Made by a program: the position numbers and the translations under genes | DNA from: Acidobacteriota bacterium | Lineage (GTDB): Bacteria > Acidobacteriota > Polarisedimenticolia > Gp22-AA2 | Direction: 5' to 3' | Length of the DNA: 31,623 bases | NCBI GenBank assembly: GCA_041486695.1 | Contig: JBGPLZ010000031.1 | Coordinates: 1 to 31,623 of the forward strand | The notes under the pieces: generated by a model | Seen by the model: the letters and a program-made list of their open reading frames with translations, nothing else | What the model was told of the DNA's origin: nothing | Databases searched by the model: none | Shown here: in pieces, positions 13,194 through 30,545 of the stretch | Layout of the letters: the number at the start of each line of letters is the position of its first letter | How positions within the stretch are numbered: position 1 is the stretch's first letter

Positions 13194-13442
13194 GCGGGCT
13201 TCCTCCTCATGAACCGTGAACCTGGCGCGTTAACGTTGATCCTGGTGCAGCGCGCCGGGTGCCTCTCGAAAGGCGGCGTATTCTACAAGAAAAGGGCCCG
13301 CAAACGCGCCCCGGAAGTGCCCCGCGCGCGGCCCTCGCCGATCGATCGTGATCGCGCTCGCCGGGCGGGACAAATCATGGAAGAATAGCGCGCTTTCCCG
13401 CAGGCCTTCACGCCTGAGCGGGTCTCGGAAGGGAGCGCACGG

Positions 13443-15776
13443 ATGAATCGACGAGGAGGCCGGGGCCGGATTGGCAACCTGGCGCTCGCGCTCGTCGGGT
13501 CGACGTTCGTGGCGTGGGGCGCGGCCTCGGGCGCCGCCGCGACGGGTGATCCCTCCGCGCCGCCGGCGCCGCCGGCGAGCTATGTCGTCCCCCGCGCCGG
13601 GGCGCCGATCACGATCGACGGGGCCCTCGACGATGAGCCATGGCGCTATGCCCTGACCTTCGATCTGCCGTACGAGATCGACCCGGGCGAGAACACCCCC
13701 GCCCCGGTGCGCACCGAGTGCTTCGTTCTCTACGACGCCGGTCATCTCTATGTCGGATTCCGCGCCCACGACCCCGATCCGGCCGCGATCCGGGCCCATC
13801 TGGCCGACCGCGATCAGGTCGATCGGGATGACGCGGTGGGGTTCATCGTCGACACCTTCAACGACGAGCGGCGTGGATTCGAGATGTTCGTCAACCCGCT
13901 CGGCGTGCAGACGGATGCCTCGCGCAACGACGTCGGCCGGGGCGACGATCTGGGCGGAGAATCGAACGAGGACTCGACCTGGGACGCCATCTGGACGTCG
14001 GCGGCCCGCATCACCTCGGAGGGGTACGAGGTCGAGATGGCGATTCCGTTCACCTCGCTGCGCTTCCCGCGCACCGAGGGGAACCAGACCTGGGGCTTCA
14101 TGCCGCTGCGCTCCTATCCGCGCGGTCAAAGGCACCAGCTCGGGTTGACGCGCCGCGACCGCAATCGTTCCTGCACCCTCTGCCAGGCCGCGAAGCTTTA
14201 CGGTTTCGCCGGCCTCGATCCGGGGCGGAACCTCGAGTTCGACCCGACGCTCACGGCGCGGCACGACGCCGCCAGACGCGACTTCCCGAACGGGCCGATC
14301 GACAGGAACGGCGTCGCCGGGGAAGGGGGCCTGGCGCTGCGCTGGGGGATCACTCCGAACCTCAGCCTGAACGGCACCTTCAACCCCGATTTCTCGCAGG
14401 TCGAGGCCGACACGGCGCAGTTGACGATCAACACCCGGTTCAAGCTGTTCTATCCGGAGAAGAGGCCGTTCTTTCTCGAGGGGGCCGACTTCTTCGCGAC
14501 GCCGCTGAACGTGCTCTACACGCGCACTGCCAGCGAGCCGGCCTGGGGGATCAAGGTTACCGGCAAGGAGGGGCCGTACGCGCTCGGTCTCTTCGTCGCC
14601 CGCGACGAGAAAACCAGCCTGATCTTTCCGTCGAACCAGAATTCGGACGATAACCGCGACGATGCCTCGTTCGAGCGGCCGCACAGCGTGGCCGGGCTGC
14701 GTTACCGTCATGATATAGGCTCTTTCTCGACGCTCGGGGTCCTGATCACCGACCGGGAGGGGGAGGGATACCACAACCGCCTCTACAGCGCCGATGGCCT
14801 GATACGGCTGTCGCCGGTCGACACCTTGCGCTTCCAGGCGATTCGATCCGACACTCTCTATCCGGCGCAGGTGGCCAGTATGTTCAATCAGATCACCGAT
14901 CCCTTCGCGGGCTCCGCGACGACGCTGCGCTATAACCATGGCTCGCGCGACTGGAATCTGTGGGGAAACTACGAGGACCTGGGACGCGATTTCCGGGCCG
15001 ACACCGGCTTCATCCCGCGCGTCGACACCCGCAAGAAGGAAGCCGGCGTCGAGCGGGTCCTCTGGGGCGGTCCGGGCTCCTGGTATACGCGCTTCCTGTT
15101 CGGAGTCTGGGGCTGGCGGATCGACGATCATTCCGGCACCCTGACCGACCAGGATCTGGGACTGCACAGCGCCCTGTTCGGGCCCCGGCAATCGATCCTG
15201 TACACGCGGGTGGCGCGCCAGAAGGAATTCTTCGACGGTGCCACCTACGACAAGACCTCCGGTGAGTTCTTCTTCAATGTCCGCCCGACCGGCGACCTGA
15301 CCCTGAGCCTCGGCGGTCGACTTGGCGACGCGGTCGACTACGACAACTCGCGGCCCGCGACCCTCACCCGCCTGACCCCCGGCCTCAGCTGCGATTTCGG
15401 GCGTCACCTGCACCTGCAGCTCGACCACACCTACGAGCGCCTGGACGAGAAGGGGGGCCGGCTCTATGTCGCGAACCTGACGCAGATCCGGCTGGTCTAC
15501 CAGTGGAGCGTCAGGACGTTCGCGCGCGCGATCCTGCAATACACCGACACGCTGAAGAAGGTCCGCCTCTACGACCCGATCCTCAACCCCGACCCGATCC
15601 AGCCTCGGGAGAGCCAGCTCCTGACCCAGCTCCTGGTCTCCTACAAGGTGAACCCGCAAACGCTGGTCTACATCGGCTACAGTGAGACGCGCACCAACGA
15701 GGACACGACCGACCTGATCCCGCTCGAAAAGGATCGCTCCCTGTTCTTCAAGATCGGCTACGCGTGGATCTCCTGA
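13443..15776 (+). CDS. Secreted protein with an N-terminal CBM9-like (carbohydrate-binding family 9-like) domain and a DUF5916-type beta-rich domain
   Basis: It has a signal peptide. 'YVVPRAGAPITIDGALDDEPW...FVLYDAGHLYVGFRAHDPDP...VGFIVDTFNDERRGFEMFVNPLGVQTD' resembles the CBM9-like/DUF5916 proteins common in Acidobacteria, Gemmatimonadetes and Bacteroidetes. The C-terminal '...FFKIGYAWIS' is beta-strand-like. Confidence 0.65.
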   Translation: MNRRGGRGRIGNLALALVGSTFVAWGAASGAAATGDPSAPPAPPASYVVPRAGAPITIDGALDDEPWRYALTFDLPYEIDPGENTPAPVRTECFVLYDAGHLYVGFRAHDPDPAAIRAHLADRDQVDRDDAVGFIVDTFNDERRGFEMFVNPLGVQTDASRNDVGRGDDLGGESNEDSTWDAIWTSAARITSEGYEVEMAIPFTSLRFPRTEGNQTWGFMPLRSYPRGQRHQLGLTRRDRNRSCTLCQAAKLYGFAGLDPGRNLEFDPTLTARHDAARRDFPNGPIDRNGVAGEGGLALRWGITPNLSLNGTFNPDFSQVEADTAQLTINTRFKLFYPEKRPFFLEGADFFATPLNVLYTRTASEPAWGIKVTGKEGPYALGLFVARDEKTSLIFPSNQNSDDNRDDASFERPHSVAGLRYRHDIGSFSTLGVLITDREGEGYHNRLYSADGLIRLSPVDTLRFQAIRSDTLYPAQVASMFNQITDPFAGSATTLRYNHGSRDWNLWGNYEDLGRDFRADTGFIPRVDTRKKEAGVERVLWGGPGSWYTRFLFGVWGWRIDDHSGTLTDQDLGLHSALFGPRQSILYTRVARQKEFFDGATYDKTSGEFFFNVRPTGDLTLSLGGRLGDAVDYDNSRPATLTRLTPGLSCDFGRHLHLQLDHTYERLDEKGGRLYVANLTQIRLVYQWSVRTFARAILQYTDTLKKVRLYDPILNPDPIQPRESQLLTQLLVSYKVNPQTLVYIGYSETRTNEDTTDLIPLEKDRSLFFKIGYAWIS

Positions 15777-15777
15777 T

Positions 15778-17661
15778 ATGTGCGGCATCGCCGGCGTCCT
15801 GCGCCCGAACGGGGAGACCGATGACCGGGCCACGGTCGAGGCGATGCTCGTCACTCTGCGTCGTCGCGGGCCGGATTGCGAGGGCATCGAGAGGGAAGGT
15901 CCCCTGACCGTCGGTCACCGGCGTCTGGCCGTGGTCGATCTGAGCGACGCCGCGCGCCAACCGATGCGCAGCCACTCGGGCCGTTTGCTGGTCACCTACA
16001 ACGGCGAGATCTACAACTTCCGGGAGCTGCGGAAGGAGCTGGGGCTGACGGAGCGCGATCTGCGCTCCAGGTCGGACACCGAGGTGCTTCTGGCCGCCTG
16101 GGAGCGCTGGGGCCCCGCCGCCCTCGACCGGATGGTCGGGCAGTGGGCCTTCGCCATTTACGATCGGGACAGCCGCCGCCTCTGGCTGGCGCGCGATCGT
16201 TTTGGGGAGAAGCCGCTCTACTATCACACCGCCCCCGGGTCGCTCAGCTTCGCCTCCAGCATCCCGGCTCTCTTGAAGGCGCCATGGGTGGGGCGGGATT
16301 TGGATCCCGAGGCCCTCGCCGAGTACCTGACCCTGCGCTACGTGATCAGCCCGCGCACGGTCGTCTCCGGCATTCTGAAGCTGCCGGCGGGTCATCTGCT
16401 GACGGTGGGGCCGGAGGGGACCGAGCTGCGCCAGTGGTACGACCCCCGCTTCGTCCCCGATGCCGAGCCGCCGACCCTGTCGTGCAGACGGGATCTCGTC
16501 GACCGGTTCGGGGCGCTTCTGCTTCAGGCGGCGGAGCGCTGCCTCGTGAGCGACCTTCCGGTCGGGCTGTTGTTGAGCGACGGCATCGACAGCAACAGCC
16601 TGCGCTCGGCCCTCCGGCTGGCCCGCCACGAGGTGCGCTGTTTTACCTACCGCGTGGGCGAGCCGGGTGGGACGCATGCGGCGGCCGCGCTCGAGGCGAA
16701 AGAGACGGCCGGCAGGACGGAGATCTGGAGCGCACCCTCCGAGCGGCTCGGGACGCTGGTGCCGGCTTTTTCGAGCTTCACCGAGCCGACGGGTGACGGC
16801 GCGGCTCTCGCCCTGTGGTATCTCATCCGCCAGGCGCGCCCGAGCGCCGGCGTCTTTCTCTCCGGGAGCGGCGGTGACGAGATCCTCGGCGGCTACCGGC
16901 TGGACCAGGATCTCCTGAGGCTCCGGGCCCTGCGCCGCTTCAGCTGGCTCCCCGAACCTCTATTGCGCAAGGTCCTTCTGCGCTATCTCGCGGGAAGCGA
17001 ATCGACCGCTGACCGGCGAACCGCGCTGCGCCGCAGCTGTCCGGAATCCGTACCGGCCCTGGCGCGCTATCTCGTCAATCGCCCCCTGCCGCTGACTTCG
17101 TTGGCGCCGCTTTTCGGCCCCGGCGCCGTCCCCGGCCGCTACCTCGGAAGCGTCGATCGACTCTATGACGAATGCGACCGGAAGGCCTCCGGGCTCGACC
17201 GGGTGCAGGAAGTGATGCTGCGCACCTTTCTCACCGAAAATATCCTGTCGCACACCGATTCGGTCGCGATGGCCTCGTCGGCCGAGCTGCGGTTGCCGTT
17301 CCTCGACCGCGACCTGGTCGATTTCGTCCTGCGGCTTCCAGCCTCGATGCGCGTGGGAGGTTTGTTCCGCCGACCGCGGACGAAAAGGATCCTGAACCTG
17401 TGGCGGGAGGAGCGCAGCCCGGGGTTCGCGTGCAGCCCGAAGAAGCGGACCTTCAATTACGGCAGCATCCGGCAGCTGCTTCCCGAGAAGGGAGGCGTGG
17501 TGCGCGATTTGATCCTCGACGCGCGCGCGCTGCGCCGGTTGCTGCCGGGGCTCGACGCCTGGGTCGGCGCACCGCCCGCCGCCTTCCGTGGCCCGGTCGA
17601 GGGAACCCTCTGGGCGCTCTTGAGTCTCGGCATCTGGTGCGAAGCGGCGGGAATCTTCTGA
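15778..17661 (+). CDS. Asparagine synthetase (glutamine-hydrolysing) family amidotransferase, AsnB-type
   Basis: The N-terminal 'MCGIAG' Ntn nucleophile and GATase-II domain are followed by the synthetase PP-loop 'LLSDGIDSNS'. The start is 2 nt after the upstream stop. Confidence 0.85.
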   Translation: MCGIAGVLRPNGETDDRATVEAMLVTLRRRGPDCEGIEREGPLTVGHRRLAVVDLSDAARQPMRSHSGRLLVTYNGEIYNFRELRKELGLTERDLRSRSDTEVLLAAWERWGPAALDRMVGQWAFAIYDRDSRRLWLARDRFGEKPLYYHTAPGSLSFASSIPALLKAPWVGRDLDPEALAEYLTLRYVISPRTVVSGILKLPAGHLLTVGPEGTELRQWYDPRFVPDAEPPTLSCRRDLVDRFGALLLQAAERCLVSDLPVGLLLSDGIDSNSLRSALRLARHEVRCFTYRVGEPGGTHAAAALEAKETAGRTEIWSAPSERLGTLVPAFSSFTEPTGDGAALALWYLIRQARPSAGVFLSGSGGDEILGGYRLDQDLLRLRALRRFSWLPEPLLRKVLLRYLAGSESTADRRTALRRSCPESVPALARYLVNRPLPLTSLAPLFGPGAVPGRYLGSVDRLYDECDRKASGLDRVQEVMLRTFLTENILSHTDSVAMASSAELRLPFLDRDLVDFVLRLPASMRVGGLFRRPRTKRILNLWREERSPGFACSPKKRTFNYGSIRQLLPEKGGVVRDLILDARALRRLLPGLDAWVGAPPAAFRGPVEGTLWALLSLGIWCEAAGIF

Positions 17662-17739
17662 AGGCCTCGCGTCCGGGCGACGCGCTCCCGGCTCCGCCCC
17701 GCGGGGGCCCGGCATCGATTCGGCTAGAATAGAAGGGCG

Positions 17740-20700
17740 ATGCAAGAGAGCCGATTTCGGATCCGCCCGCAGTGGCCCGCGGCCCTGCTTCTGGGCGCGG
17801 TCATGTCCATCGCCGGCCTCCCGGCCGGGCCGGCCGCGATCCGGACGGGCACCGCGGCCCCGGCGAACTCCACCAACCATCTGCTGGGGCAGACCAGTCC
17901 CTACCTTCTCGAGCACCTCGAGAACCCGGTTGACTGGTATCCATGGGGGGACGAGGCGCTGGCGCGCGCGCGCGACGAGGACAAGCCGATCTTCCTGTCG
18001 ATCGGTTACTCGGCCTGCCACTGGTGTCACGTCATGGCGCGGGAATCGTTCTCCGATGAGGAGATCGCCCGCCTGCTCAACCAGAGCTTTGTCGCCATCA
18101 AGGTCGATCGCGAGGAGCGGCCCGACCTGGACGCCATCTACATGGATGCGGTGGTGCTGATGACCGGCGGCGGCGGATGGCCGATGTCGGTCTTTCTGAC
18201 GCCCGATCTCGAGCCGTTCCACGGCGGGACCTATCTCCCCAGGGAGCAGTTCCGCGCCCTGCTGACCGGCATCGCCTCGACCTGGAAGGGCAACCGGGAT
18301 CAGGCGCTCGCGGTCGCCCGGCAGGTGCGCGAGAGGCTGGCGCGGCCGCCGACGCCGCCGGGTCCCTCCGGGGCCGTCCCGGCGGGGACGCTTGTCGACG
18401 GGGCGCTGGTCCAGTGGCGGGCCTCCTACGATCCGGTCCACGGAGGCTTCGGGGGCGCGCCGAAGTTCCCGTCCCCGCAGGCGCTCCAGCTGCTTCTCCG
18501 GGCGTCACGCGAGAACCGCTCTGCCCCGGCGCTCGAGATGGTGACGCGCAGCCTGGAAGCGATGGCCAACGGGGGCCTTTACGACCAGCTCGGGGGCGGG
18601 TTCCACCGCTACGCCACCGATGCGGCCTGGAGGGTGCCGCACTTCGAGAAGATGCTCTATGACAATGCCTTGCTCGCCCCGGTCTATCTCGAGGCCTGGC
18701 GGGCGACGGGACGCATCGAGTTCCGGCGGGTCGCGGAGGAGACGCTATCCTGGGTGGCGCGCGAGATGACCGACGCCCGCGGCGGGTTCTGCGCCAGCCT
18801 CGATGCCGACAGCGAGGGGGAGGAGGGCCGCTTCTACCTGTGGACGACGGCGGAGGTTCGGCGGGTCTTGGGCGATCGCGACGCCGCCTTCGCGATCGAC
18901 TACTTCGGCATGAGCGAGCGGGGCGATCTCCCCGGCGGGCGCAACGTCCTGCATGTTCGGTCGGCCCCGCCCGAGTTCGCGCCGGGGCACGGGATGAGCG
19001 ATGAGGCAGTGCGGGCGCGGGTCGTCGACCTCCGCGCCAAGCTGCTGGCGGCACGGAGCTCTCGCCCGCGTCCGCGCCGCGATGACAAGATTCTCACCGC
19101 CTGGAACGGCCTGATGATCTCGGCCTACGCCCGCGCCTACGCTCTCACCGGAGAGGTTCGCTACCGCGAAGCGGCGGCGCGCGCGGCGCGTTTCGCCCAG
19201 GACGCATTGCTCGATCGCGACGGCCGCGTCCTGGCGGTCTTCAGGCCGGGTGGGCAGGTCCCGCTGCCCGGCACCCTCGACGACTCCGCGTTTCTGGCGC
19301 GCGGCCTGCTCGACCTCTACGACGCCACGTCGACGCGCGCCTACCTCGAGGCTGCGAAGCGCATCGTGCATGACGCCGAGCGCTTCCTCGATCGGACTGC
19401 GGGAGGATACTTCTTCACCGCGGAGGATCGGCGACACTTGATCGTCAGGACCAAGAGCTTCGAGGATCAGGCGCTGCCATCGGGGAATGCCGTCCTTCTC
19501 GAATGCCAGACGCGTCTCGCTCGCGCCCTGGGTGACCCGACGCTGTTGCAGCCGGTGCGGCGCACGCTCGAGATCGCCGGTCCTGCGCTCCGCGCCGCGC
19601 CGGCCGGCTCGGCCGCGATGATCCTGGCGGCGTTGCAGCTGGATGCGCCGGAGTCGGCCGCTCCCCGGCCCGATGCGGCCGCGGCGCGCGCCCTCACGAT
19701 CTCGCTGCTCGCGACGCCTGCCCTGGCCGCGAGCCCCGCACCCGCCGCGGCTCCGCAGCCAAAGGGGACCGATGGGACCGGGGGAGGAGACCGGATCGTG
19801 CCCGGCGCCATCGTCGGCCGGGCCAATGCGCAGAAGGTCGTCGAGGCGTCCATCGCCGTCCCGGGCGGGACGGTGCGCCCCGGTCAGGCCGTCACGCTGT
19901 CGTTGCGGCTGGTGATCGCACCGGGGTGGCATATCAATTCGTCGCGTCCAACGCTCGACTACCTGATCGCGACCAGGCTCGCGTTCCCCGATCCCGCCGC
20001 AGTTCGGGTCGAAGAGATCGCCTACCCCGAAGGCTCGATCGTGCTCCTCGAGTTCGCCCAGGAGAAGCTCTCGGTCTATCAGGGGGCGACGACGATCAGG
20101 GCCACCGTCAGCCTGCCGCCGGAAGCGCCGCCGGGCCGGAGCGTGATCGCCGCCAGGCTGGTCTATCAGGCCTGCAGCGACAAGACCTGCCTCGCCCCCG
20201 AGACGATCGAGTTCCGGATCCCGGTCGACGTCGGCGGCGAGCCGGTGATGAGGACGCTGTCCCGCGTCGGTGAAAGCCCTTCGGACATCGAGGCTGCGGG
20301 GGCGCCGGCCGGAGGCAACGAAGGCGGCGCGCCGCCGACCGGCCGTGGCGGAGGGCTCGAGTCGCTCCTGGGACAGGGGCAGGGGGGCGAGGGGATCCAG
20401 GCGCTCCTCGATCGCCGCGGCCTCCTCGTGCTCCTCAGTCTGGTGTTCCTGGCCGGGCTGGCCCTGAACCTGACCCCCTGCGTCTACCCGATGATGCCGA
20501 TCACGATTGGCTTCTTCGCCAATCAGTCGCTCGGCAGCTGGGGGCGTCGGATCGGCCTGCCGGCCCTCTACGTCCTTGGGATGGCGGTGACCTACTCGAT
20601 TCTCGGCCTGGTGGCGGGACTGACCGGGACGCTGTTCGGCTCAACCCTGCAAAGTCCCCTCATCACCGGGGGGCTGGTGCTGATCTTCGTCATCATGGCG

Positions 20701-21594
20701 CTGTCGATGTTCGGATGGTTCGAGATCCAGATGCCGCGCTTCCTGACCCGCCTCAGCGGCGGCCGGCAGGGGACCCTCGGCGCCTTTCTGATGGGCCTGA
20801 CGATGGGGATCGCTGCGGCGCCCTGCATCGGCCCGTTCATCGTGCCGCTGCTGGCCTTCGTCGGGGTCTCGGGGAAGCCGATCCTGGGCTTCTGGCTGTT
20901 TTTCGTGATGGCGATCGGGATGGGGGTGCCGAACCTCTTTCTGGGTGCCTTCTCCGGCGCCATGGCGGCGCTGCCGCGCTCGGGCATCTGGTTGATCTAC
21001 GCCAAGAAGGTAATGGGCGTGGCCCTCCTGGCCGTGGCGCTCTATTTCCTGCAGCCGTTCCTGAAGGATCGCTGGCTCGGCGTCATCGCGCTCGGCTTCG
21101 CCGCCCTCTCGGGGCTCTATCTCGGTTTCCTGGATCGCACCCGGGTTGCCTCCGGTTGGTTCCGGCCGGTGAAAATCGGCATCGGGCTTCTGGTCCTCTC
21201 CGCCGGGGCGTGGGTGGCCGGGCCGCTTCTCCGCGCCCGGCCGGAGGTCGACTGGCGTCCTTACTCGCCAGAGATCCTCGAAGCGGCCAGGGCGGCGGGG
21301 CGGCCGGTGATCATCGACTTCGCCGCGGCCTGGTGCCTGCCGTGCAGAGAGCTCGAGCGCTTCACCTTCACCGATGCCCGCGTGCTCGTGGAGGCGGAGC
21401 GCTTCGCGCTTCTCAAGGCCGATCTCACTTCGTTCGAAGCGGCGCCGGTGCGCGAGATCCGGGCGCGCTTCGAGGTCGTGGGAGTACCGACCATCATCTT
21501 CATCGACGGCAAGGGAATCGAGAAAAGAGATCTCAGGGTGTACGGTTTCGAGGCGGCCGCCCGGTTCGTCGAGCGCATGCGGCAGGTCCGGTAG
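17740..21594 (+). CDS. Fusion protein: signal peptide + DUF255/YyaL thioredoxin-domain protein (SPATA20-like, with (alpha/alpha)6-barrel region) + complete thiol:disulfide interchange protein DsbD (alpha, TM beta and thioredoxin-like gamma domains)
   Basis: The DUF255 signature '[47 protein letters not shown]' is present. The DsbD-alpha-like block is '[22 protein letters not shown]...[18 protein letters not shown]'. The DsbD-beta Cys sites are '[18 protein letters not shown]' and '[17 protein letters not shown]'. The gamma domain has '[15 protein letters not shown]'. Total length is 1284 aa, roughly YyaL (~680) plus DsbD (~600). Confidence 0.8.
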
Positions 21595-21603
21595 AACGGC
21601 GGT

Positions 21604-21640
21604 GAACGCGACCCATGCGAATACTCGGACCGGCTCCTAG
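21604..21640 (+). repeat. Copy of a ~37-nt repeat family (gaacgcgacccATGcgaatactcggaccggctcCTAG) overlapping the thrC start codon
   Basis: 34/37 identical to the reverse complement of 23815..23851, and ~33/35 to 24058..24092. Confidence 0.6.
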
Positions 21641-22808
21641 CTGCCTCGACCGGCTCGAATGTTCGCTCTGCACAGCCGTTCGGCCGTTCGGCCCCGAGCC
21701 GGCGGGTCTGTGCACGTGCGGCGCGCCTCTCCTGGCGCGCTACCGGCTGGACGAGGTCCGGAAGGCGCTGCACCGGGAGGATCTCCGCGGGCGGATCGCC
21801 AGCCTATGGCGCTACGCCGAGATCCTCCCGGGGGTGACCCCGGTCACTCTCGGGGAAGGGTTCACGCCGCTCCTGCCGGCGAGCCGATTGGGCCGCGAGC
21901 TCGGCCTCCACGGACTCCTGATCAAGGACGAGTCGGTCAACCCGACCGGCTCGTTCAAGGCGCGCGGAATGTCGGTGGCCGTGTCGGTGGCGGCGGCCCA
22001 GGGGGTGAGGGTCGCGGCCACGCCTTCCGCCGGGAACGCCGGCTCGGCCCTGGCGGCCTATGGCGCGCGCGCCGGGCTCCAAGTGCAGCTCTTCCTGCCG
22101 GAGACGACCCCGCGGCCGTTCGTCCTCGAGGCGCGGCGGCTGGGCGCGCGGGTGCGGCTCGTGCCCGGCTCGATCGCCGACGCGGGGCGGGTGATGCGGG
22201 AGAGCCTGGGTCAGGGCGGGTGGTTCGACTTCGCGACCCTGCGTGAGCCGTTCCGGATCGAGGGAAAGAAGACGATGGGGTACGAGCTGGCCGAGCAATG
22301 CGGCTTCGAGCTTCCCGAGGTCGTCATCTATCCCACCGGCGGGGGAACGGGACTCATCGGCATGTGGAAGGCGTTCGACGAGATGGAAGCGCTGGGGTGG
22401 GTCGGCGGTCGCCGGCCACGGATGATCGTGGTCCAGGCGGAGGGTTGCGCGCCGATCGTGAGGGCCTTCGAGCGCGGCGCCGATCGCGCCCTGCCCTGGC
22501 CGAACCCCGAGACGGCCGCCTCGGGGCTCAGGGTTCCCGGAAGCCTGGGGGACTTCCTGATCCTGAAGGCGGTCCGGGAGAGCGGCGGAACCGCGCTCGC
22601 GGTCGCCGACCGTGAGATGATGGAGGGGTCCGCGCGGCTGGCGCGCCATGAGGGGATCGATGCCTGCCCGGAGGGGGGAGCGACGCTCGCGGCGCTGCTG
22701 CACCTGAAGCAGGAGGGGAAGGTGGGGGCCGACGAGAGGATCGTCCTCTTTAACACCGGCACCGGCCTGAAGTACTTTGATGCAGGACCGGGCATCGAGC
22801 CCGGCTAA
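21615..22808 (+). CDS. thrC: Threonine synthase (PLP-dependent, type with N-terminal Cys4 zinc-ribbon)
   Basis: 'LECSLC...LCTCGAPL' is followed by 'LIKDESVNPTGSFKARGMSVAVSVA' (PLP-lysine motif) and 'IYPTGGGTGLIG'. The start codon lies inside a repeat copy (see findings). Confidence 0.85.
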   Translation: MRILGPAPSCLDRLECSLCTAVRPFGPEPAGLCTCGAPLLARYRLDEVRKALHREDLRGRIASLWRYAEILPGVTPVTLGEGFTPLLPASRLGRELGLHGLLIKDESVNPTGSFKARGMSVAVSVAAAQGVRVAATPSAGNAGSALAAYGARAGLQVQLFLPETTPRPFVLEARRLGARVRLVPGSIADAGRVMRESLGQGGWFDFATLREPFRIEGKKTMGYELAEQCGFELPEVVIYPTGGGTGLIGMWKAFDEMEALGWVGGRRPRMIVVQAEGCAPIVRAFERGADRALPWPNPETAASGLRVPGSLGDFLILKAVRESGGTALAVADREMMEGSARLARHEGIDACPEGGATLAALLHLKQEGKVGADERIVLFNTGTGLKYFDAGPGIEPG

Positions 22809-22820
22809 AAGGAGGGGCTG

Positions 22821-23225
22821 ATGCGTCACCGAAGATTGACGGTCGGAGGAATCGCTGGCGCCGTTCTCGCCGGAGCGCTCCTGGCGGCCTCGCCGGCACC
22901 GAAGCCGACTCCCGCGCCCTCTCCGACCCCGGCGCCTGCTCCGACTCCGGCGCCCTCTCCGACTCCGGCGTCCTCCCCCTCGCCCTCTTCCGGACCGGGA
23001 GCGGCGCCCGAGCCCGCGGCGTCCCCCGCACCGGCACCACCGCTGCCGCGCATCATACGGACCGTCTGCACCGACCACATCTGCGGCAACTGCGATGGCA
23101 AGTGCCAAAAGAACGGCGGCCACGTGGCGGTCGACAAGAAAGGCCATTGCGCCTGCACTCCGACCGAGGGGAGCGCCCTCGACCAGGCCACGCGCCAGGC
23201 CTACGAGAAGAACCAGCCAAAGTGA
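22821..23225 (+). CDS. Small secreted protein: signal peptide, Pro/Thr/Ala/Ser-rich repeat linker, C-terminal Cys6/His3 mini-domain
   Basis: A strong SD (AAGGAGG) lies 7 nt upstream. The N-terminus 'MRHRRLTVGGIAGAVLAGALLAAS' is signal-like. '(PTPAPS)n' is encoded by an 18-bp tandem repeat. The C-terminus 'CTDHICGNCDGKCQKNGGHVAVDKKGHCAC' is Cys/His-rich. It ends with a TGA that overlaps the GTG of folE. Confidence 0.6.
   Translation: MRHRRLTVGGIAGAVLAGALLAASPAPKPTPAPSPTPAPAPTPAPSPTPASSPSPSSGPGAAPEPAASPAPAPPLPRIIRTVCTDHICGNCDGKCQKNGGHVAVDKKGHCACTPTEGSALDQATRQAYEKNQPK
22905..22976 (+). repeat. 4 x 18-bp tandem repeat (ccgactccggcgccctct-like) encoding PTPAPS units inside the small secreted protein gene
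   Basis: Four consecutive 18-nt units with 1 to 3 mismatches each are visible directly in the sequence. Confidence 0.7.
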
Positions 23226-23818
23226 GCCGACGACGTCCCGGCCCCGATCGGGCTCGCCTGCTGAGGGCCGCACGGCTGTTCGTCGCCGGCACGGGAGAGC
23301 GCGAGCTGCGTCGTGAGCTGACCAGGACTCCCGCGCGGGTGGCGGATGCCTGGAGCGCCGAGATCCTCTCCGGCTATCGCACCGACCCTTCCCGGGTTCT
23401 CGGGCGCCCCTTCCGGGCGCGGCAGCGCGGCATGGTCGTCGTGCGTGCCATCCCGTTCGTCTCGGTCTGCGTCCATCATCTGCTGCCATTCCATGGCACG
23501 GCCCACGCCGGCTATCTGCCGGATGGCCGCCTGGTCGGCCTGTCGAAGATCACCCGGGTCGTCGATGCGCTGTCGCGCCGGCTGCAGCTCCAGGAGCGTC
23601 TGACGCATCAGGTGGTCGAAGCGCTCGCCGCGGCGCTCGTTCCGCTCGGCGCCGCCTGCCGCATGGAGGCGGAGCACCTCTGCATGACCGTGCGCGGGGC
23701 GCGCAAGCACGGCACGCGCGTCGTCACCACCGCCTACACCGGTGCCTTCATGCAGAGCCCGGCGCTGCGCGCCGAGTTCCTGAGACTGTGCGCCGGCGTG
23801 CCGGCGCGCCGGCGCTAG
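23222..23818 (+). CDS. folE: GTP cyclohydrolase I (FolE, type 1)
   Basis: 'VCVHHLLPFHGTAHAGYLPDGRLVGLSKITRVVD...RLQLQERLT...EAEHLCMTVRG' matches the FolE catalytic core. The GTG start at 23222 overlaps the upstream stop (GTGA). The track ORF from 23102 overlaps the upstream gene and is probably too long. Confidence 0.85.
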   Translation: MSRRRPGPDRARLLRAARLFVAGTGERELRRELTRTPARVADAWSAEILSGYRTDPSRVLGRPFRARQRGMVVVRAIPFVSVCVHHLLPFHGTAHAGYLPDGRLVGLSKITRVVDALSRRLQLQERLTHQVVEALAAALVPLGAACRMEAEHLCMTVRGARKHGTRVVTTAYTGAFMQSPALRAEFLRLCAGVPARRR

Positions 23819-24092
23819 GAGCCTGTCCGAGTAATAGCATGGGTCGCGTTCGCGGCGCCGCGGGGTCGGCCGCGAGGCGCCGCGACGACCGCGATGTGAG
23901 TCATCGCGGAGGAGCGGCAACGATGCGGACGGTCCCGCGCCGCCACGAACCCGCAGGGCACGTGGGGATTGCGGCCCCATGCTTCGTTGATCGTCGTCAA
24001 CGATGCGACCACATCGTATCCTCCTCGCGCCTCGCCTGGGACTCGCAAGCCCCACGTGCGCGGCCCATGCTATTACTCGGACAGGCTCCTAG
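23815..24092. repeat. 278-bp element bounded by ~35-bp near-perfect terminal inverted repeats (candidate MITE, invertible segment or structured RNA locus) between convergent folE and accC
   Basis: The left arm (23815..23849, ctaggagcctgtccgagtaatagcatgggtcgcgt) and the reverse complement of the right arm (24058..24092) are identical at 33/35 positions. The CTAG at each end contains the TAG stops of folE (23816-18) and of accC on the minus strand (24089-91). The internal 208 bp has several short perfect hairpins, for example ccgcgatg-tgagt-catcgcgg. Confidence 0.55.
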
Positions 24093-24111
24093 GAGCCGGT
24101 CCGAATATTCG
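24089..24111. repeat. Partial inverted copy of the same repeat (ctaggagccggtccgaatattcg), abutting the right IR to form a long palindrome centred on CCTAGG; it encodes the last residues of AccC
   Basis: Its reverse complement 'cgaatattcggaccggctcctag' matches the thrC-start copy at 22/23 positions. Confidence 0.55.
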
Positions 24112-25642
24112 ACCGACGGCTGTGCATCAGGGCGCGCCGCCCGGCGAGGAGCCAGGGGCTGGCGACCGCACCAGGCTCGGAGGCCGCACTGGGCATGGAG
24201 ACCGACGCCCGCGTGCTCTCCTCGCTCGCCACGATCGCCGCGGCGATCACCGCCTCGTCCAGATCGGGGCCCGGCTCGAGCAGCGGCGCGATCAGCCGCG
24301 GCAACTCCCGATCGACGTACCCGACGTCGATCGCCCCATCCCGGAAGCCGGGATCGTTCATCACCTCGCGGTGGAACGGGATCGTCGTTTCGATTCCGGC
24401 CACCACGAACTCGTCGAGCGCGCGACGCATCCTGGCGATCGCCTGGCCGCGCGTCCGACCCCAGGCGACCAGCTTGGCGATCAGCGCGTCGTAGTACAGC
24501 GAGATCTCGTCCCCCGGGAGGAGGGCGGTGTCGACCCTGATCCCCGGCCCCGCCGGCAGGCGCAGCTCGGCGATCCGGCCGGGGCAGGGCCGGAAGTCGT
24601 GAGCCGGATCCTCGGCCAGGATGCGGCACTCGATGGCCCAGCCGCGCCGGCGGATGTTCTCCTGCCGGATCGACAGCCGCTTGCCGCGGGCGATGTCGAT
24701 CTGCTCGCGCACCAGGTCGTAGCCGGTCGTCATCTCGGTGACCGGATGCTCAACCTGGAGCCGCGCGTTGACCTCCATGAAATAGGGCTGGCCCGTGTCG
24801 CCCAGAAGGAACTCGACCGTGCCGGCGCTGAAGTATCCGGAGGCGCGCACCGCCTCGAGCGCCAGCGCTCCCATGCGCTCGCGCGTCGCCGGCGTGACCG
24901 CGGTCGAAGGGGACTCCTCGATCAATTTCTGGTGGCGGCGCTGCAGCGAACATTCCCGCTCCCCCAGATGGACCGCCTGGCCGTGGCGGTCCGCCAGCAC
25001 CTGGATCTCGACATGCCGCACCTTCTCGAGATACTTCTCGGCGTAGATGCCGTCGTCGCCGAAGGAGGCCTTGGCTTCGGACCGAGCGGCGCGCAGCGCC
25101 GCCGCGAGCTCCCCCGGGGCGTGGACGACGCGCATCCCCTTGCCGCCGCCACCGGCGGCCGCCTTGAGCAGGATCGGATAGCCAGCCTGGTCCGCGAAAG
25201 CCAGGATCGCGGCCGTGCCTGCGGGCCCGGTGGCCCGCTCGGTCAGCCCGGGGATCACGGGCACGCCGCGCGCCGCCATCCGGCGCCGCGCCTCAACCTT
25301 GTCTCCCATCGCCCGCATGGCCGCCGGCGGCGGGCCGATGAAGATCAGGCCCTGCGCTTCGCAGGCTTCGGCGAACGCCGGGTTCTCGGAGAGGAAGCCG
25401 TAACCCGGATGGACCGCGTCGGCCCTCATGGCACGGGCCGCCTTCAGGATCGCCTCGATGTCGAGGTAGGACGAAGCCGGCGGCGGCGGACCGATCGGCC
25501 GGGCGTCGTCGGCGAGGCGGATCGGCAGCGAGTCACGGTCGGCCTCGGAAAAAACCATCAGCGGCGTGAGGCCGGCGTCGCGGCAGGCGCGCAGGACCCG
25601 CAGGGCGATCTCACCGCGATTGGCGATCAGGATCCGCCGCAT
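24089..25642 (-). CDS. accC: Biotin carboxylase subunit of acetyl/propionyl-CoA carboxylase, with a ~60-aa Ala/Ser-rich C-terminal extension and no biotinyl (BCCP) domain
   Basis: 'MRRILIANRGEIALRVLRACR...', an ATP-grasp domain and the 'biotin carboxylase C' domain are present. The start is preceded by GAGGAG. The C-terminal tail 'AVIAAAIVASEESTRASVSMPSAASEPGAVASP...SNIRTGS' runs into the repeat. Confidence 0.85.
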   Translation of the reverse strand: MRRILIANRGEIALRVLRACRDAGLTPLMVFSEADRDSLPIRLADDARPIGPPPPASSYLDIEAILKAARAMRADAVHPGYGFLSENPAFAEACEAQGLIFIGPPPAAMRAMGDKVEARRRMAARGVPVIPGLTERATGPAGTAAILAFADQAGYPILLKAAAGGGGKGMRVVHAPGELAAALRAARSEAKASFGDDGIYAEKYLEKVRHVEIQVLADRHGQAVHLGERECSLQRRHQKLIEESPSTAVTPATRERMGALALEAVRASGYFSAGTVEFLLGDTGQPYFMEVNARLQVEHPVTEMTTGYDLVREQIDIARGKRLSIRQENIRRRGWAIECRILAEDPAHDFRPCPGRIAELRLPAGPGIRVDTALLPGDEISLYYDALIAKLVAWGRTRGQAIARMRRALDEFVVAGIETTIPFHREVMNDPGFRDGAIDVGYVDRELPRLIAPLLEPGPDLDEAVIAAAIVASEESTRASVSMPSAASEPGAVASPWLLAGRRALMHSRRSNIRTGS

Positions 25643-25700
25643 GGCATCTCCTCGGGCTGGCCGGCTGCGGGGGGCGGCCGCCGAACAGCCGCACCGGCTC

Positions 25701-27248
25701 CTAGAGCGGGATGTTCCCGTGCTTCTTGGGAGGATTGGTGTCCTTCTTGGTCCTCAGAAGCCGCAGGGCCTTGATCACCTTGCCGCGCGTCTGGCGCGGC
25801 TCGATCACTTCGTCGACGTAGCCGCGCTCGGCGGCGACGTACGGGTTGGCGAACTTCTCCCGGAACTCCTCGACCTTCTGGCGGCGGAGCGCCTCCCCGT
25901 CCCCGGCCGCCGCCAGCTCGCGTCGGTAAAGGACGCTCACGGCCCCCTCCGGACCCATGACGGCGATCTCGGCGGTCGGCCAGGCGAAGTTGAAGTCGGT
26001 GCGGATGTGCTTCGAGCCCATGACGCAATAGGCGCCGCCGTACGACTTCCGGGTGATGACCGTGATCTTCGGCACGGTCGCCTCGGCGAAGGCGTACAGG
26101 AGCTTGGCGCCATGCTTGATGATGCCGCGGTGCTCCTGGTCGGTGCCGGGCAGGAACCCCGGCACGTCCTCGAAGATCACCAGCGGCACGTTGAAGGCGT
26201 CGCAGAAGCGGACGAAGCGCGCTCCCTTGAGCGAGGCGTCGATGTCGAGCGTGCCGGCCAGCACGGCCGGCTGGTTGGCGACGATGCCGACGACACCGCC
26301 ATCCATGCGGCCGAGGCCGACCACCAGGTTCTTGGCGTAGTGCTCGTGGACCTCGAGGAAGGCCCCTTCGTCGAGCACGCTGCGCACGACATCCTTGATG
26401 TCGTACGGCTTGTTCGGTTCCTCCGGGATCAGCCGATCGAGCCGCTCGTCCTCACGGTCCGGGTCGTCGACGGGATCGCGGCGGGGCGGGTCTTCCATGT
26501 TGTTCGAGGGCAGATAGGACAGAAGCTCGCGGATGAGACCGAGTGCGGCGCGGTCGTCGGCCGCCGCGAAGTGGGCCACGCCACTCACCGTGGCGTGGGT
26601 CATGGCGCCGCCCAGCTCTTCCTTGCTCACCTCTTCATGGGTCACCGACTTGAGGACGTCGGGGCCCGTGATGAACATGTAGGAGGTCCCCTGCACCATG
26701 ATGTTGAAGTCGGTGATCGCCGGCGAGTAGACCGCTCCGCCGGCGCAGGGGCCCATGATCGCCGAGATCTGCGGAATGACGCCCGAGGCGAGGGTGTTGC
26801 GCAGGAAGATGTCGGCGTAGCCGCCGAGGGAAACGACGCCCTCCTGGATGCGCGCCCCTCCGGAGTCGTTGAGGCCGATGACCGGCGCGCCGACCTTCAT
26901 CGCCAGATCCATGATCTTGCAGATCTTGGCGGCGTGGGTCTCGCTCAAGGAACCGCCGAAGACGGTGAAGTCCTGGGCGAAGATGAAGACCGGCCGGTCG
27001 TCGATCGTGCCGTGTCCAGTGATCACCCCGTCGCCCGGGATCCGCTGCGACTCCATCCCGAAGTCGTTCGAACGGTGGACCACAAAGCGGTCGAGCTCCT
27101 GGAAGGACCCGGGGTCGAGCAGGAGCTCGACCCGCTCGCGGGCCGGCAGCTTTCCCTCGGCCTTCTGGCGCTGCAGACGCTCCGCTCCGCCGCCGGCCTC
27201 GGCCTCCCGGTTCCGGCGCCGCAACTCCTCGAGCTGATCGTTGGCCAA
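25701..27248 (-). CDS. Acyl-CoA carboxylase carboxyltransferase (beta) subunit, propionyl-CoA carboxylase beta / methylmalonyl-CoA carboxyltransferase family
   Basis: '...[11 protein letters not shown]...' together with the two crotonase-fold carboxyltransferase halves ('[19 protein letters not shown]', '[10 protein letters not shown]') identify it. Only a TTG start is available in frame after the upstream stop, so the start is uncertain. Confidence 0.8.
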
Positions 27249-27293
27249 GCTAGAAACCTGTCCGGGTATCGGGACGGGTCACGGTGGGGCGCC
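27249..27293. repeat. Degenerate copy of the repeat family filling the tal-pccB intergenic spacer
   Basis: 'gctagaaacctgtccgggtatcgggacgggtcacggtggggcgcc' aligns with 'gctaggagcctgtccgagtaatagcatgggtcgcgttcgcggcgcc' (23814..23859) at about 32/45 positions. Confidence 0.4.
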
Positions 27294-27956
27294 TCAGGCT
27301 TTCCGCGAGTTCTGCGGCAACTTCTCCCAATCGGCCAGAAACTTCTTCAGGCCGAGGTCGGTGAGAGGATGCTTCAGCAGGCTCTCGAGGACTGAAAACG
27401 GCATCGTGGCGATGTCGGCGCCGATGGTGGCGGCGTCGATGACGTGGAGCGGGTTGCGGATGCTGGCGGCCAGGATCTCGCACTTGAAGTCGTAGTTGTC
27501 GAAGATGGACCGGATCTGGCGCACCAGGTCCATGCCGACGTGGCCGATGTCGTCGAGCCGGCCGAGAAACGGGCTGACGTAGGAGGCGCCCGCCTTCGCC
27601 GCCAGCAGCGCCTGCGGGGCGGAGAAGATGAGGGTGGTGTTGATCCGGATCCCCTCCGATGACAGGGTCCTGATGGCGCGCAGCCCCTCGCGGATGAAGG
27701 GGATCTTGACGACCACGTTCTTGGCGACCTTCGCCAGATCGCGCCCCTCCCGGATCATCTCGTCGGTCGTCACGCTGACCACCTCGGCGCTCACCGGGCC
27801 GGGCGCGACGACGGCGCAGATCTCCTTGAGCGCCTCGATGAAGTCCCGGCCCTCCTTCGAGACCAGGCTCGGGTTGGTGGTGACGCCGTCGAGGATCCCC
27901 CAGGAGTGGGCCTCCCGAATCTCCTTGATGTTGGCCGTATCGAGATAGATTTTCAT
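27294..27956 (-). CDS. Transaldolase / fructose-6-phosphate aldolase family protein (short ~220-aa type)
   Basis: '[13 protein letters not shown]...GVTTNPSL...VVKIP...' carries the conserved Schiff-base Lys region. Length and motifs match FSA/TalC-type enzymes. Confidence 0.85.
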
Positions 27957-27971
27957 CGCCGCCTCCGGCTC

Positions 27972-30545
27972 CTAGTGATCCTTGCCGTTGCCGCCGCCGG
28001 GAGCCGGCTCCAGGGTCCCCCCGGACGGTCCGGCTCCCTCGCCCGGCTCGCTCTCCTCGCCCTGGATGCCGCCCGACGGCGACCCTCCCGGCCCCGCGAC
28101 TTCGTCGCCTTCGGCCACCGGCGCCACGGCCACGACCTTGTCGTCGTCGTCGAGGTGGATCAGGCGCACGCCCTGCGTCGGCCGCCCGAGAAGGGAGATG
28201 TCCTTGACGTTCGTCCGGATGATCTTGCCGAAAGCGGTGATCACCATCACCTGGTCGTCGGTCTCCACCTCCATCGCCTGGACCACCGGGCCGTTCTTGT
28301 CGGTGACCTTGAAGTTGATGATGCCGCTGCCGCCCCGGCCCTGCAGACGATACTCGGGGATCTCGGTCCTTTTGGCATACCCTTTCTCGCTGACCGTCAG
28401 GATGGTGCTGTCCTTGGCGGCCTTCAGGACGTCCATCTCGACGATGACGTCTCCTTCGGCCAGGCGCATGCCGATCACGCCGCGGGCGCCGCGACCCATC
28501 GCCCGGACGTCGTCCTCGGCGAAGCGGATCGACTGCCCCTGGGCGGTCGCCATGAAGATCTCCTGCTTGCCGTCGGTCAGCTTGACCGACAGCAGCTCGT
28601 CCCCTTCATCCACCCCCGTGCCGATAATGCCACCGGCACGCGGGTTGCCATAAGCCGACAGCGCGGTCTTCTTGATGATCCCCTTGCGAGTGCAGAAGAC
28701 CACGTGCTGATCGTCCCTGAACTCCTTGGTCGCGACCAGGGCGGCGACCTTCTCGCCGGTCTGGAGCTCGACAAAGTTGACGATGTTCTTCCCCTTGCCG
28801 GCGGCGCCGATCTGCGGGATCTCGTGGACCTTCAGCCAGTGCACCCGGCCCCGGGTGGTGAAGATCAGGATCGACGCGTGGGTGGAGGCGACGAACAGGT
28901 GCTCGACGAAATCCTCCTCCCGCGTGGTCATGCCGATCTTTCCCTTGCCTCCCCGCCGCTGGCTGCGGTAGAGCGACAGCGGATTGCGCTTCATGTAGCC
29001 GGCGTGGGAGACGGTGATGACCATCTCCTCCTCGGCGATCATGTCCTCGACCGAGATCTCCCCTGCCTGCGGGACGATCTCGGTGCGCCGCGCATCGGGG
29101 TGGTTCTTGCGGATCTCCTTGAGCTCTTCGACGATCATGCTGAACACCAGCCGCTCGTTGGCCAGGATCTCCTTGAGCCGGGCGATCTGCTTCAGCGTCT
29201 CGGTGTACTCGTCGACGATCTTCTGGCGCTCCAGGCCGGTCAGGCGCTGCAGCCGCATGTCGAGGATCGCCTGCGCCTGGATGTCGGAGAGCTTGAAGCG
29301 CAGGCGCATCGCCTGGCGCGCGTCGTCAGGCGTCTTGGCCGATTTGATCAGGGCGATCATCTCGTCGAGATTGTCGAGGGCGATCTTGAGCCCCTCGAGG
29401 ATGTGGGCCCGCTCCTCGGCCCGCGCCAGCTCGAACGCGGTGCGCCTCGTCATCACCTCGCGCCGATGATCGATGAAGTGCCCGATCATCTGCTTGAGGT
29501 TGAGCACCTGGGGGCGGTTGTTGACGATCGCCAGGAAGATCGCCCCGAAGCTGTCCTGCATCTGGGTGTGCTTGTAGAGGTTGTTCAGGATCACCTTGGG
29601 CACCGCGTCGCGGCGCAGATCGAGAACCACGCGGATGCCATCGCGGTCGGACTCGTCGCGGATGTCGGTGATGCCGTCGATCTTCTTTTGATTGACCAGG
29701 CCGGCGATCTGCTCTATGAGCCGCGTCTTGTTGACCTGGTAAGGAATTTCGGTGATGACGATCTTGTCCTTGCCCCGCTTGCCGCCTTCCTCGATGGTCG
29801 CCCGGGCGCGCATGGTGATGATGCCGCGGCCGGTCCGGTAGGCCTGCAGGAACCCCTCGCGCCCGAGGATGTACCCTGACGTCGGGAAGTCGGGCCCCTT
29901 GACGTGCTGCAACAGGGCGTCCATGGTGATCTCGGGGTCCTCGATCTGCGCGATGACGGCGTTCACCACCTCGGTCATGTTGTGCGGCGGGATGTTCGTC
30001 GCCATGCCGACGGCGATGCCGGAGGAGCCGTTGACCAGGAGGTTCGGGAAGCGGCTCGGCAGCACCAGCGGCTCGAGCTGCTGGCCATCGTAGTTCGGGC
30101 CGTAATCAACCGTGTCCTTCTCGATGTCGGCCAGCATCTCGTGCGCCAGCCGGGCCATCCGGATTTCGGTGTAGCGCATGGCGGCCGCAGCGTCCCCGTC
30201 GATCGACCCGAAGTTCCCCTGCCCGTCCACCAGCGGGTAGCGCATGGAAAAATCCTGCGCCATGCGCACGATCGTGTCGTAGATGGCGGTGTCACCGTGC
30301 GGGTGGTACTTCCCCATGACGTCTCCGACGATGCGCGCGGCCTTCTTGTACGGCTTGTCATGGTCGTTCCCCGCCTCGTGCATGGCAAACAGGACGCGGC
30401 GGTGGACCGGCTTGAAGCCGTCGCGGATGTCGGGCAGGGCCCTGCCGATGATCACGCTCATGGCGTAATCGAGGTAGGACCGCCGCATCTCGTCTTCGAT
30501 GTCGACTCGGGAGATCTCGCCTGGTGTCTGGGTTGTCTCGCTCAT
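27972..30545 (-). CDS. gyrA: DNA gyrase subunit A
   Basis: '[31 protein letters not shown]' carries the active-site Tyr region, followed by the GyrA beta-pinwheel C-terminal domain and a Gly/Glu/Pro-rich acidic tail. Confidence 0.9.

Follow-up and report, generated by a model that had tools for sequence, protein, structure and literature searches.

Repeats on gene starts and stops of an acidobacterial contig as probable ends of a CTAG-targeted miniature transposon of the IS1182 type

Why should one short repeat lie exactly on the starts and stops of several unrelated genes? The question is raised by contig JBGPLZ010000031.1 (assembly GCA_041486695.1) of an Acidobacteriota bacterium of the Gp22-AA2 lineage, which was analysed over 31,623 nucleotides, the stretch that is called the window below. 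A preliminary description of this DNA had reported a dispersed repeat with an 11-nt core on the ends of thrC, folE, accC, pccB and gyrA, had regarded its copies as related by descent and had named three possible origins: repetitive extragenic palindromes or bacterial interspersed mosaic elements (REP/BIME), the ends of a miniature inverted-repeat transposable element (MITE), or a selfish element that propagates by supplying junctions of stop codon, Shine-Dalgarno (SD) sequence and start codon. From sequence comparison the repeats can very probably be identified as terminal inverted repeats (TIRs) of a non-autonomous MITE that would move by means of a trans-acting DDE transposase of the IS1182 family, ISMno8 type.

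The window was scanned on both strands for the 11-mer CCGGCTCCTAG, with 100 shuffles as control. Exact copies were found at 21630, 24089 (minus strand), 25694 and 27965, and copies with one mismatch at 23815 (minus strand) and 24082. These six copies with at most one mismatch compare with 0.85 expected, and six were reached in 0/100 shuffles; a 16-nt version with at most three mismatches occurred five times against 0.96 expected. All copies reported before were present on the starts and stops assigned to them, and their number above chance was confirmed. From its outer end inwards every copy starts with CTAG-GAGCC(K)GTCCGAGTA. Copy L (outer end 23815, reading rightwards) and copy R (outer end 24092, reading leftwards) are the left and right ends of the MITE. 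Remnant A (21599..21640, minus strand, ~38-42 nt, outer CTAG at 21637-21640), which consists of a single TIR with subterminal sequence and sits in the first thrC codons, is 88% identical to the MITE left end over 43 nt. Remnant D (24089..24111, plus strand, 23 nt) is a single TIR that abuts the MITE outer end to outer end; it shares 22/23 positions with A, a score that was equalled in 0/2000 shuffles. Two degenerate single TIRs complete the series. Remnant X (25682..25704, minus strand) matches at 19/23 positions, a score equalled in 5/2000 shuffles, and begins at the pccB stop (CTC TAG). Remnant Z (27250..27293, plus strand) retains subterminal sequence, fills the tal-pccB spacer and places its outer CTAG next to the TTG start of pccB; it aligns to the MITE left end over 44-45 nt with one indel, which none of 2000 shuffles equalled, and it is also present in an independent, near-identical 1.5-kb contig from JGI.

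Judged by their sequence, copies L/R, A, D, X and Z are one non-coding MITE and four single ends that belong to a common insertion-sequence family. The supposed relation by descent was borne out for these six; it is doubtful for Y, which matches over 11 nt at the gyrA stop (27965..27975, minus strand) and shows no similarity beyond them. Two other parts of the first account can be settled here. The core is not palindromic apart from CTAG, and the 18-nt palindrome at 24082-24099 is formed by two copies that abut end to end. The shared translation '...TRTGS*' had correctly been taken as a side effect.

The complete MITE extends from 23815 to 24092, between the convergent genes folE and accC, and measures 278 bp including the CTAG at each end. 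Its inverted arms of 66 nt show 79% complementarity, and their terminal 34 nt match in 33/34 positions. The left TIR (23819..23848, plus strand) reads GAGCCTGTCCGAGTAATAGCATGGGTCGCG and agrees with the ends of IS1182-family elements in every one of its first ~19 nt; the right TIR occupies 24059..24088 on the minus strand, at the MITE right end. The left CTAG (23815..23818), either target or duplication, contains the TAG that is the folE stop on the plus strand, and the right CTAG (24089..24092), which is common to the MITE right end and remnant D, contains the accC stop on the minus strand. What had been listed as separate long copies at 23815 and 24058-24092 are both present, but they are the inverted ends of a single 278-bp unit, and this had been missed.

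Seven further full-length copies of 277-280 bp were found at unrelated sites with different flanks. All had CTAG at each end, with the exception of one left end that read TTAG. One of them, which lies at a different site (L179), shares 94% identity with the window MITE from end to end; for the six others the figure is 69-77%. In one metagenome several copies of one MITE subfamily occupied different sites. The unit lies well under the size of about 600 bp that bounds MITEs and has no capacity to code for a transposase: the MITE showed no transposase similarity, and none was found in the window by tblastn with two IS1182 transposases. A literature search for the TIR sequence returned unrelated primers only. 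The MITE family itself is undescribed, and it belongs to a known insertion-sequence family.

For the identity of that family, one genome per species was scanned for the 19-nt end CTAGGAGCCKGTCCGARTA, which was met at no fewer than 118 loci. Among the matches listed were Acidobacteriota, Planctomycetota, Nitrospirota, Pseudomonadota, Chloroflexota, Chlamydiota and others, and plus/minus pairs of the end in these matches stood either ~1.5 kb (1.4-1.6 kb) or 126-323 bp apart. According to tblastn, an IS1182-type transposase is encoded in each of the 14 distinct elements among the same matches that measure 1.38-1.63 kb (1382-1633 bp), and their length agrees with the 1.3-1.9 kb or so that the family has between its TIRs. 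Two of these transposases scored 356 and 337 bits against NCBIfam NF033551, for which the cut-off is 270, and they also matched Pfam DDE_Tnp_1 and DUF772. The terminal 22-28 nt of the MITE are identical to the ends of the 14 transposase-bearing elements. Similarity stops at that point, and comparison of the full elements yielded no parent insertion sequence (IS) with the interior of the MITE. The repeats can nevertheless be assigned as probable MITE ends of the IS1182 family, because the 19-nt end bounds IS1182-encoding units as well as short MITEs.

The described element with the same ends is ISMno8 of Methylobacterium nodulans plasmid pMNOD02 (NC_011887.1), which has CTAG outside both. Its left end reads CTAG-GGAGCCTGTCCGAGTA and its right end is the complement of this with one mismatch. 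The ISMno8 transposase is 64% identical to that of the element in L074, which carries the TIR of the window. The TIR pair, the IS1182 partners and the copies at unrelated sites speak for MITE ends among the origins proposed at first. As a separate observation, the terminal ~20 nt (GGAGCCTGTCCGAGTAAT) were identical among IS1182-family elements of at least eight phyla with transposases only 45-68% identical (seen in L006, L014, L029, L043, L047, L054, L074, L084, L114 and others), an identity for which the search pattern itself had selected and which is not a measure of true conservation.

The place of the intact copy was further studied by comparison with relatives. The best protein matches of the window fell in Acidobacteriota, several of them under the label Candidatus Polarisedimenticolia. 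Three of these, at ~81% DNA identity, cover all junctions, and no TIR copy was detected in relatives L186, L187, L189, L190 and L191. Since the relatives lack TIR copies and have shorter junctions, the insertions are derived. The interval without counterpart in the relatives (23812..24116, 305 nt) consists of exactly the MITE and remnant D. On its left, window positions 13357-23811 are collinear with L190, which goes on from folE into a gene with a SPOR domain. On its right, positions 31623-24117 are collinear with L186 and L189, which go on from accC into the biotin carrier gene (BCCP) and HU. Two gene orders, ...thrC-folE and gyrB-gyrA-tal-pccB-accC, hence meet at the MITE and D, and this breakpoint is either a rearrangement mediated by copies of the element or a chimeric join made by the assembler. 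The GC-skew profile across the junction was uninformative. A chimera, joined by the metagenome assembler across two MITE copies, concerns the folE-MITE-accC junction and not the identity of the repeat. It is suggested by the facts that the window is a whole contig of a metagenome-assembled genome, that both synteny blocks meet exactly at a 278-bp repeat and that accC or folE of this strain appears in no second assembly. Nonetheless, the 94% identity to the L179 copy is maintained along the whole length of the MITE with no hybrid signs, and recombination between transposon copies is a common real source of breakpoints. On balance, the chimera is the less likely origin of the junction, though a possibility to be reckoned with.

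The coincidence of the repeats with gene ends can be understood from the distribution of CTAG. The window contains 7 copies of this tetranucleotide, where 92 would be expected from base composition and 27 under a Markov model. The repeat is present at 6 of the 7; the remaining one (17724) lies between genes, at a conserved site that L190 has as well. Other tetranucleotides of the window deviate in the opposite direction, GATC (367) and TCGA (333) being about four-fold over-represented. In 64 kb of relatives without the element 11 CTAGs were counted; 7 of them serve as stop codons and the other 4 lie between genes, which leaves none within coding sequence. In the outer flanks of 140 ends from other genomes CTAG was the sole common feature, and inspection of these ends revealed no extra direct repeat or palindromic flank beside it. 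A larger preferred target, CCGGCTC/CTAG/GAGCCGG, was considered and rejected, as the flanks of the 140 ends showed no such consensus. In a Bradyrhizobium IS1182 copy the TIRs have diverged and the flanking CTAG has been kept. Members of the IS1182 family are known to make 4-bp duplications and to use short palindromic or inverted-repeat targets (PMC3281130, PMC8027508, PMC5678879).

We infer that the copies lie on gene ends because insertion is CTAG-specific and CTAG is almost absent inside genes. The host stop codon survives because CTAG contains TAG whichever strand is read and is found again on either side of the insertion. A selfish element that spreads by supplying stop-SD-start junctions is not supported in the form proposed: there is no context beyond CTAG in the 140 copies, and the position on gene ends follows from CTAG.

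The CTAG shared by the MITE and remnant D is as expected if the MITE entered a CTAG that flanked an older copy. In L151, L134 and L136, MITE copies likewise abut short TIR-like fragments across one CTAG, for example CTAG-ccggtccgagtcatg and CCTAGGAGC-CTAGGAGCC, which suggests that CTAGs flanking old copies are reused as targets. A different arrangement was noticed on Bradyrhizobium plasmids (L194/L195), where an IS256-family end terminates in CTAG and is followed in different plasmids by different elements, an IS630-family element in one and an IS1182 copy in another; this CTAG is an insertion hot spot shared by them.

A strict CTAG target is also what a MITE of the IS630/Tc1-mariner type would show, and duplication of TA within CTAG or of all 4 bp would produce the identical sequence, so that the two are indistinguishable by sequence. 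Such an origin is very improbable all the same, as the terminal 19-28 nt are identical to those of elements with IS1182 transposases and of ISMno8, and no IS630-type partner with these ends was seen.

The single ends can be assessed from the orthologous genes of the relatives; Pfam agrees with the gene calls around the copies. The gene for a DsbD-like fusion protein (17740-21594, plus strand) precedes thrC (21615-22808, plus strand). In L190 and L191 2 nt separate the dsbD stop from the thrC ATG and ThrC begins with MGGFLDRLEC, whereas in the window ~40 nt of remnant A lie between them and ThrC begins with MRILGPAPSCLDRLEC. The start codon (21615..21617, plus strand) lies inside remnant A and is the sole usable one because of the in-frame TGA at 21603-21605; the conserved LDRLECSLC follows directly after the start. 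At the other end of the block, folE ends at 23818 on the plus strand and accC (24089-25642) is read from the minus strand. The relatives share ...GRRALM(E/H)SR in AccC and then have a variable end; collinearity of the window with them ends at 24117, and remnant D, read on the minus strand, codes for the last 7 accC residues and the stop (SNIRTGS*). The comparison of thrC and accC termini with relatives that lack the repeat, which had been proposed earlier, accordingly revealed a different thrC start and an accC tail that is variable after GRRALM(E/H)SR. In this lineage biotin carboxylases possess a C-terminal extension of ~70 residues past the Pfam domain, with the conserved SPW.LAGRRALMESR (window 24112-24310, minus strand).

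The spacers between the next genes on the minus strand, pccB (25701-27248) and tal (27294-27956), are longer in the window. Between pccB and accC the relatives have 6 nt or an overlap, with TGA or TAA as stop; the window has 58 nt that start with X at the CTC-TAG stop. Between tal and pccB they have 1-28 nt; in the window there are 45 nt, which align over their whole length to the MITE left end as remnant Z. In L186 the tal stop is itself CTAG. The tal-pccB spacer of this relative (L186 8415-8450), which begins at the CTAG stop and contains the weak TIR-like strings CTAGATCCTCCGAG...CGGACGGAGTCC, has no recognisable copies and may, from this slight resemblance, be a much older remnant.

Copy Y, at the stop of gyrA (27972-30545, minus strand), is of ambiguous origin, either stop and SD context or a tiny footprint. 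The first 7 nt of its match (CTAGGAG) are also found at the gyrA stop of L189, which has no element, and the gyrA-tal spacer is not enlarged (15 nt against 12 nt). Y is probably stop and SD context and at most a tiny footprint. Its core had been proposed to provide the SD sequence of tal; GGAGG, which precedes the ATG by 5 nt, is a likelier candidate than the GGAG in the core. A stop codon and a ribosome-binding site can naturally be combined as TAG and then GGAG, and it may be asked whether all copies are junction motifs for stop, SD and start that arose in place under host selection and are no mobile DNA. The CTAGGAG of L189 lends itself to this explanation, which probably accounts for Y and at most for Y. 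For the remaining copies it is hardly credible, because the similarity runs 23-45 nt past any SD function, the real accC SD lies ~50 nt beyond the pccB stop, the copies are missing from orthologous junctions and the same sequence bounds transposons in many phyla.

Elsewhere, single ends are accompanied by intermediates. For 68 ends from other genomes that had enough inward sequence, 32 belonged to MITE-sized units and 16 to IS-sized units, and 20 were without partner. The metagenomes contained a graded series that runs from hairpin-like mini-elements to CTAG-bounded units of 35-40 nt (up to 57 nt) which keep 0-20 nt of the second TIR. This series fits internal deletion of a long inverted repeat.

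The following course of events would account for these data. The element would insert at the palindrome CTAG only and leave CTAG on each side, by a 4-bp duplication or by a TA duplication within CTAG. In a high-GC lineage that has nearly purged CTAG from coding sequence and retains it mainly as C+TAG stops, the element would be channelled to gene ends, and insertions there would be tolerated, as the host stop codon is kept by a TAG on both strands and both sides. One intact MITE (23815-24092) would have persisted beside four older insertions (A, D, X and Z) that internal deletion cut to one end of 23-45 nt. Selection would have removed deletions that harmed flanking genes, and the decayed copies would have been absorbed as a new thrC start, a new 7-residue accC C-terminus and longer tal-pccB-accC spacers.

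Several observations weigh against this reconstruction. In other genomes, an adjoining open reading frame (ORF) of 100 codons or more ends in the TAG concerned at 41/130 and 31/66 ends, versus 17/29 and 4/21 in the control frames; the enrichment for stop codons is moderate and the control frames are imperfect. No filled/empty site pair for an intact copy emerged from a search of plasmids with the joined flanks of the Bradyrhizobium copy, whose left flank belongs to the end of an IS256 element and has other neighbours in each plasmid record, and the assignment of CTAG to a duplication and not to the element tips is indirect. The L190 site orthologous to remnant A is without CTAG. The source genome was seen through this window alone, with its one intact copy and four remnants, for copy number and transposase alike. 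Finally, TIR position 10 is G in A, D, X and Y (GAGCCGG) but T in the intact MITE, in Z and in 140/140 genome ends, and independent decay does not readily explain the same T->G change four times. The G form is rare, with 66 loci in the whole metagenome collection, where it is usually one mutated end of an otherwise normal MITE. It is assumed to stem from an extinct local G-subfamily.

The interior of the MITE has a property of its own. The MITE is predicted to fold with -190 kcal/mol (z = -12.7), and RNAalifold applied to eight copies from different acidobacterial lineages (window interior 23849-24058, columns 35-250 of alignment A1) yielded a terminal stem and two internal hairpins of ~50 bp each. 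Compensatory changes were present in 33/98 pairs and 95.8% of the cells were paired. When the partners were slid, 3-11 compensatory pairs and 36-43% paired cells were obtained, and the observed values were reached in 0/500 shuffles. A hand tally of G-U against A-C mismatches (24 and 13) singled out no strand. Selection on the fold, a fold at the level of DNA and passive homogenisation of the arms by template switching are equally possible explanations of the modelled structure. Invariant GAGGAG-like and TTCCTCCTC blocks are also present in the interior and are not paired together in the predicted fold.

Rfam gave nothing at gathering thresholds in the whole window and nothing meaningful for the MITE at E values up to 10. 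A scan for promoters and terminators between 21.4 and 28.1 kb detected no intrinsic terminator in or near the copies, and the MITE as a source of canonical terminators is not supported. Maintenance of the 220-nt interior across acidobacterial classes might mean that the predicted fold is under selection, whether for transposition (pairing of the ends, a single-stranded intermediate) or as a portable module at gene ends that stabilises RNA or blocks transcription; this idea is speculative and rather doubtful. Were the gene-end module real, the element would be semi-domesticated and would target stop codons.

RNA folding around the copies had been recommended as a check, and REP/BIME-like palindromic units spread by a REP-associated tyrosine (Y1) transposase (RAYT), which would be short, dispersed, on gene ends and in both orientations as here and would seem to find their palindrome in the 18 nt of the two abutting copies, can be dismissed as highly implausible, because the folds of single units were not better than those of shuffled sequence (z +0.14, +0.57, -0.99 and -0.70), the same ends bound 14 elements with an IS1182 DDE transposase and no RAYT was seen, the source genome being represented by the window alone, and TIRs are met in pairs that enclose an interior of 220 nt.

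The apparent oddity of repeats on starts and stops is explained by two ordinary facts: the transposon is specific for CTAG, and CTAG is scarce except at stops. Three points go beyond routine annotation: the way in which CTAG channels insertions to stop codons, the use of captured remnants as gene ends, and covariation in the interior. Transposon debris has been absorbed into genes, as thrC starts at the ATG of a remnant and accC ends in residues that a remnant encodes. For the annotation of uncultivated Acidobacteriota the signature CTAG-GAGCCTGTCCGAGTA can serve to recognise transposon ends, altered gene termini and likely points of rearrangement or misassembly. Should a function be found for the interior fold, this family would offer a useful example of a structured MITE that is brought to gene ends.

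Some features of the neighbouring genes may be recorded. The DsbD-like fusion protein has 1284 aa and comprises, in addition to DsbD_N and DsbD_TM, a DUF255 thioredoxin domain and thioredoxin domains at its C-terminus; L190 has a conserved version of 1278 aa. In the ORF at 22821-23225 (plus strand) an 18-nt tandem repeat (22893-22982) codes for the Pro/Ser/Thr/Ala-rich linker of a small Cys-rich protein with no Pfam match, the L190 counterpart of which has 153 aa and is likewise located between thrC and folE. The window contains no tRNA or tmRNA genes.

Among known systems, ISMno8 is closest to the window MITE, with which it shares the terminal sequence and the outer CTAG. With ~1.47 kb and a transposase gene of its own it is autonomous, whereas the window contains a 278-bp non-coding derivative and single ends. 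IS630/Tc1-mariner elements use CTAG as target and duplicate TA; insertion at CTAG is common to them and the window element, and their transposase family and ends are unrelated to it. REP/BIME are short dispersed repeats at gene ends, as are the units in the window, which differ from them in the lack of a unit hairpin, in a DDE and not a RAYT partner and in being the ends of a larger element. Bacterial MITEs such as Correia/NEMIS, RUP and ERIC are small and non-coding, have TIRs that match an autonomous IS, are mostly intergenic and strongly folded and can alter gene ends. From these, and from MITEAba12 (PMC6382973), which may serve as a further bacterial MITE for comparison, the window MITE is distinguished by its parent family and host phylum (Acidobacteriota), its strict CTAG target and its covarying interior of two hairpins. 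IS1272, which uses inverted-repeat targets, is often situated directly downstream of genes (PMC5678879); its replacement of stem-loops is unlike the window family, whose complete copies show on inspection no larger flanking inverted repeat. Short palindromic targets are also used by the IS1182-family elements ISPsy36, with GGCC as target, and ISPse1, which makes a 4-bp duplication (PMC8027508, PMC3281130). ISPsy36, ISPse1 and IS1272 have a transposase of the same family as the partners of the window element, for which the target is CTAG.

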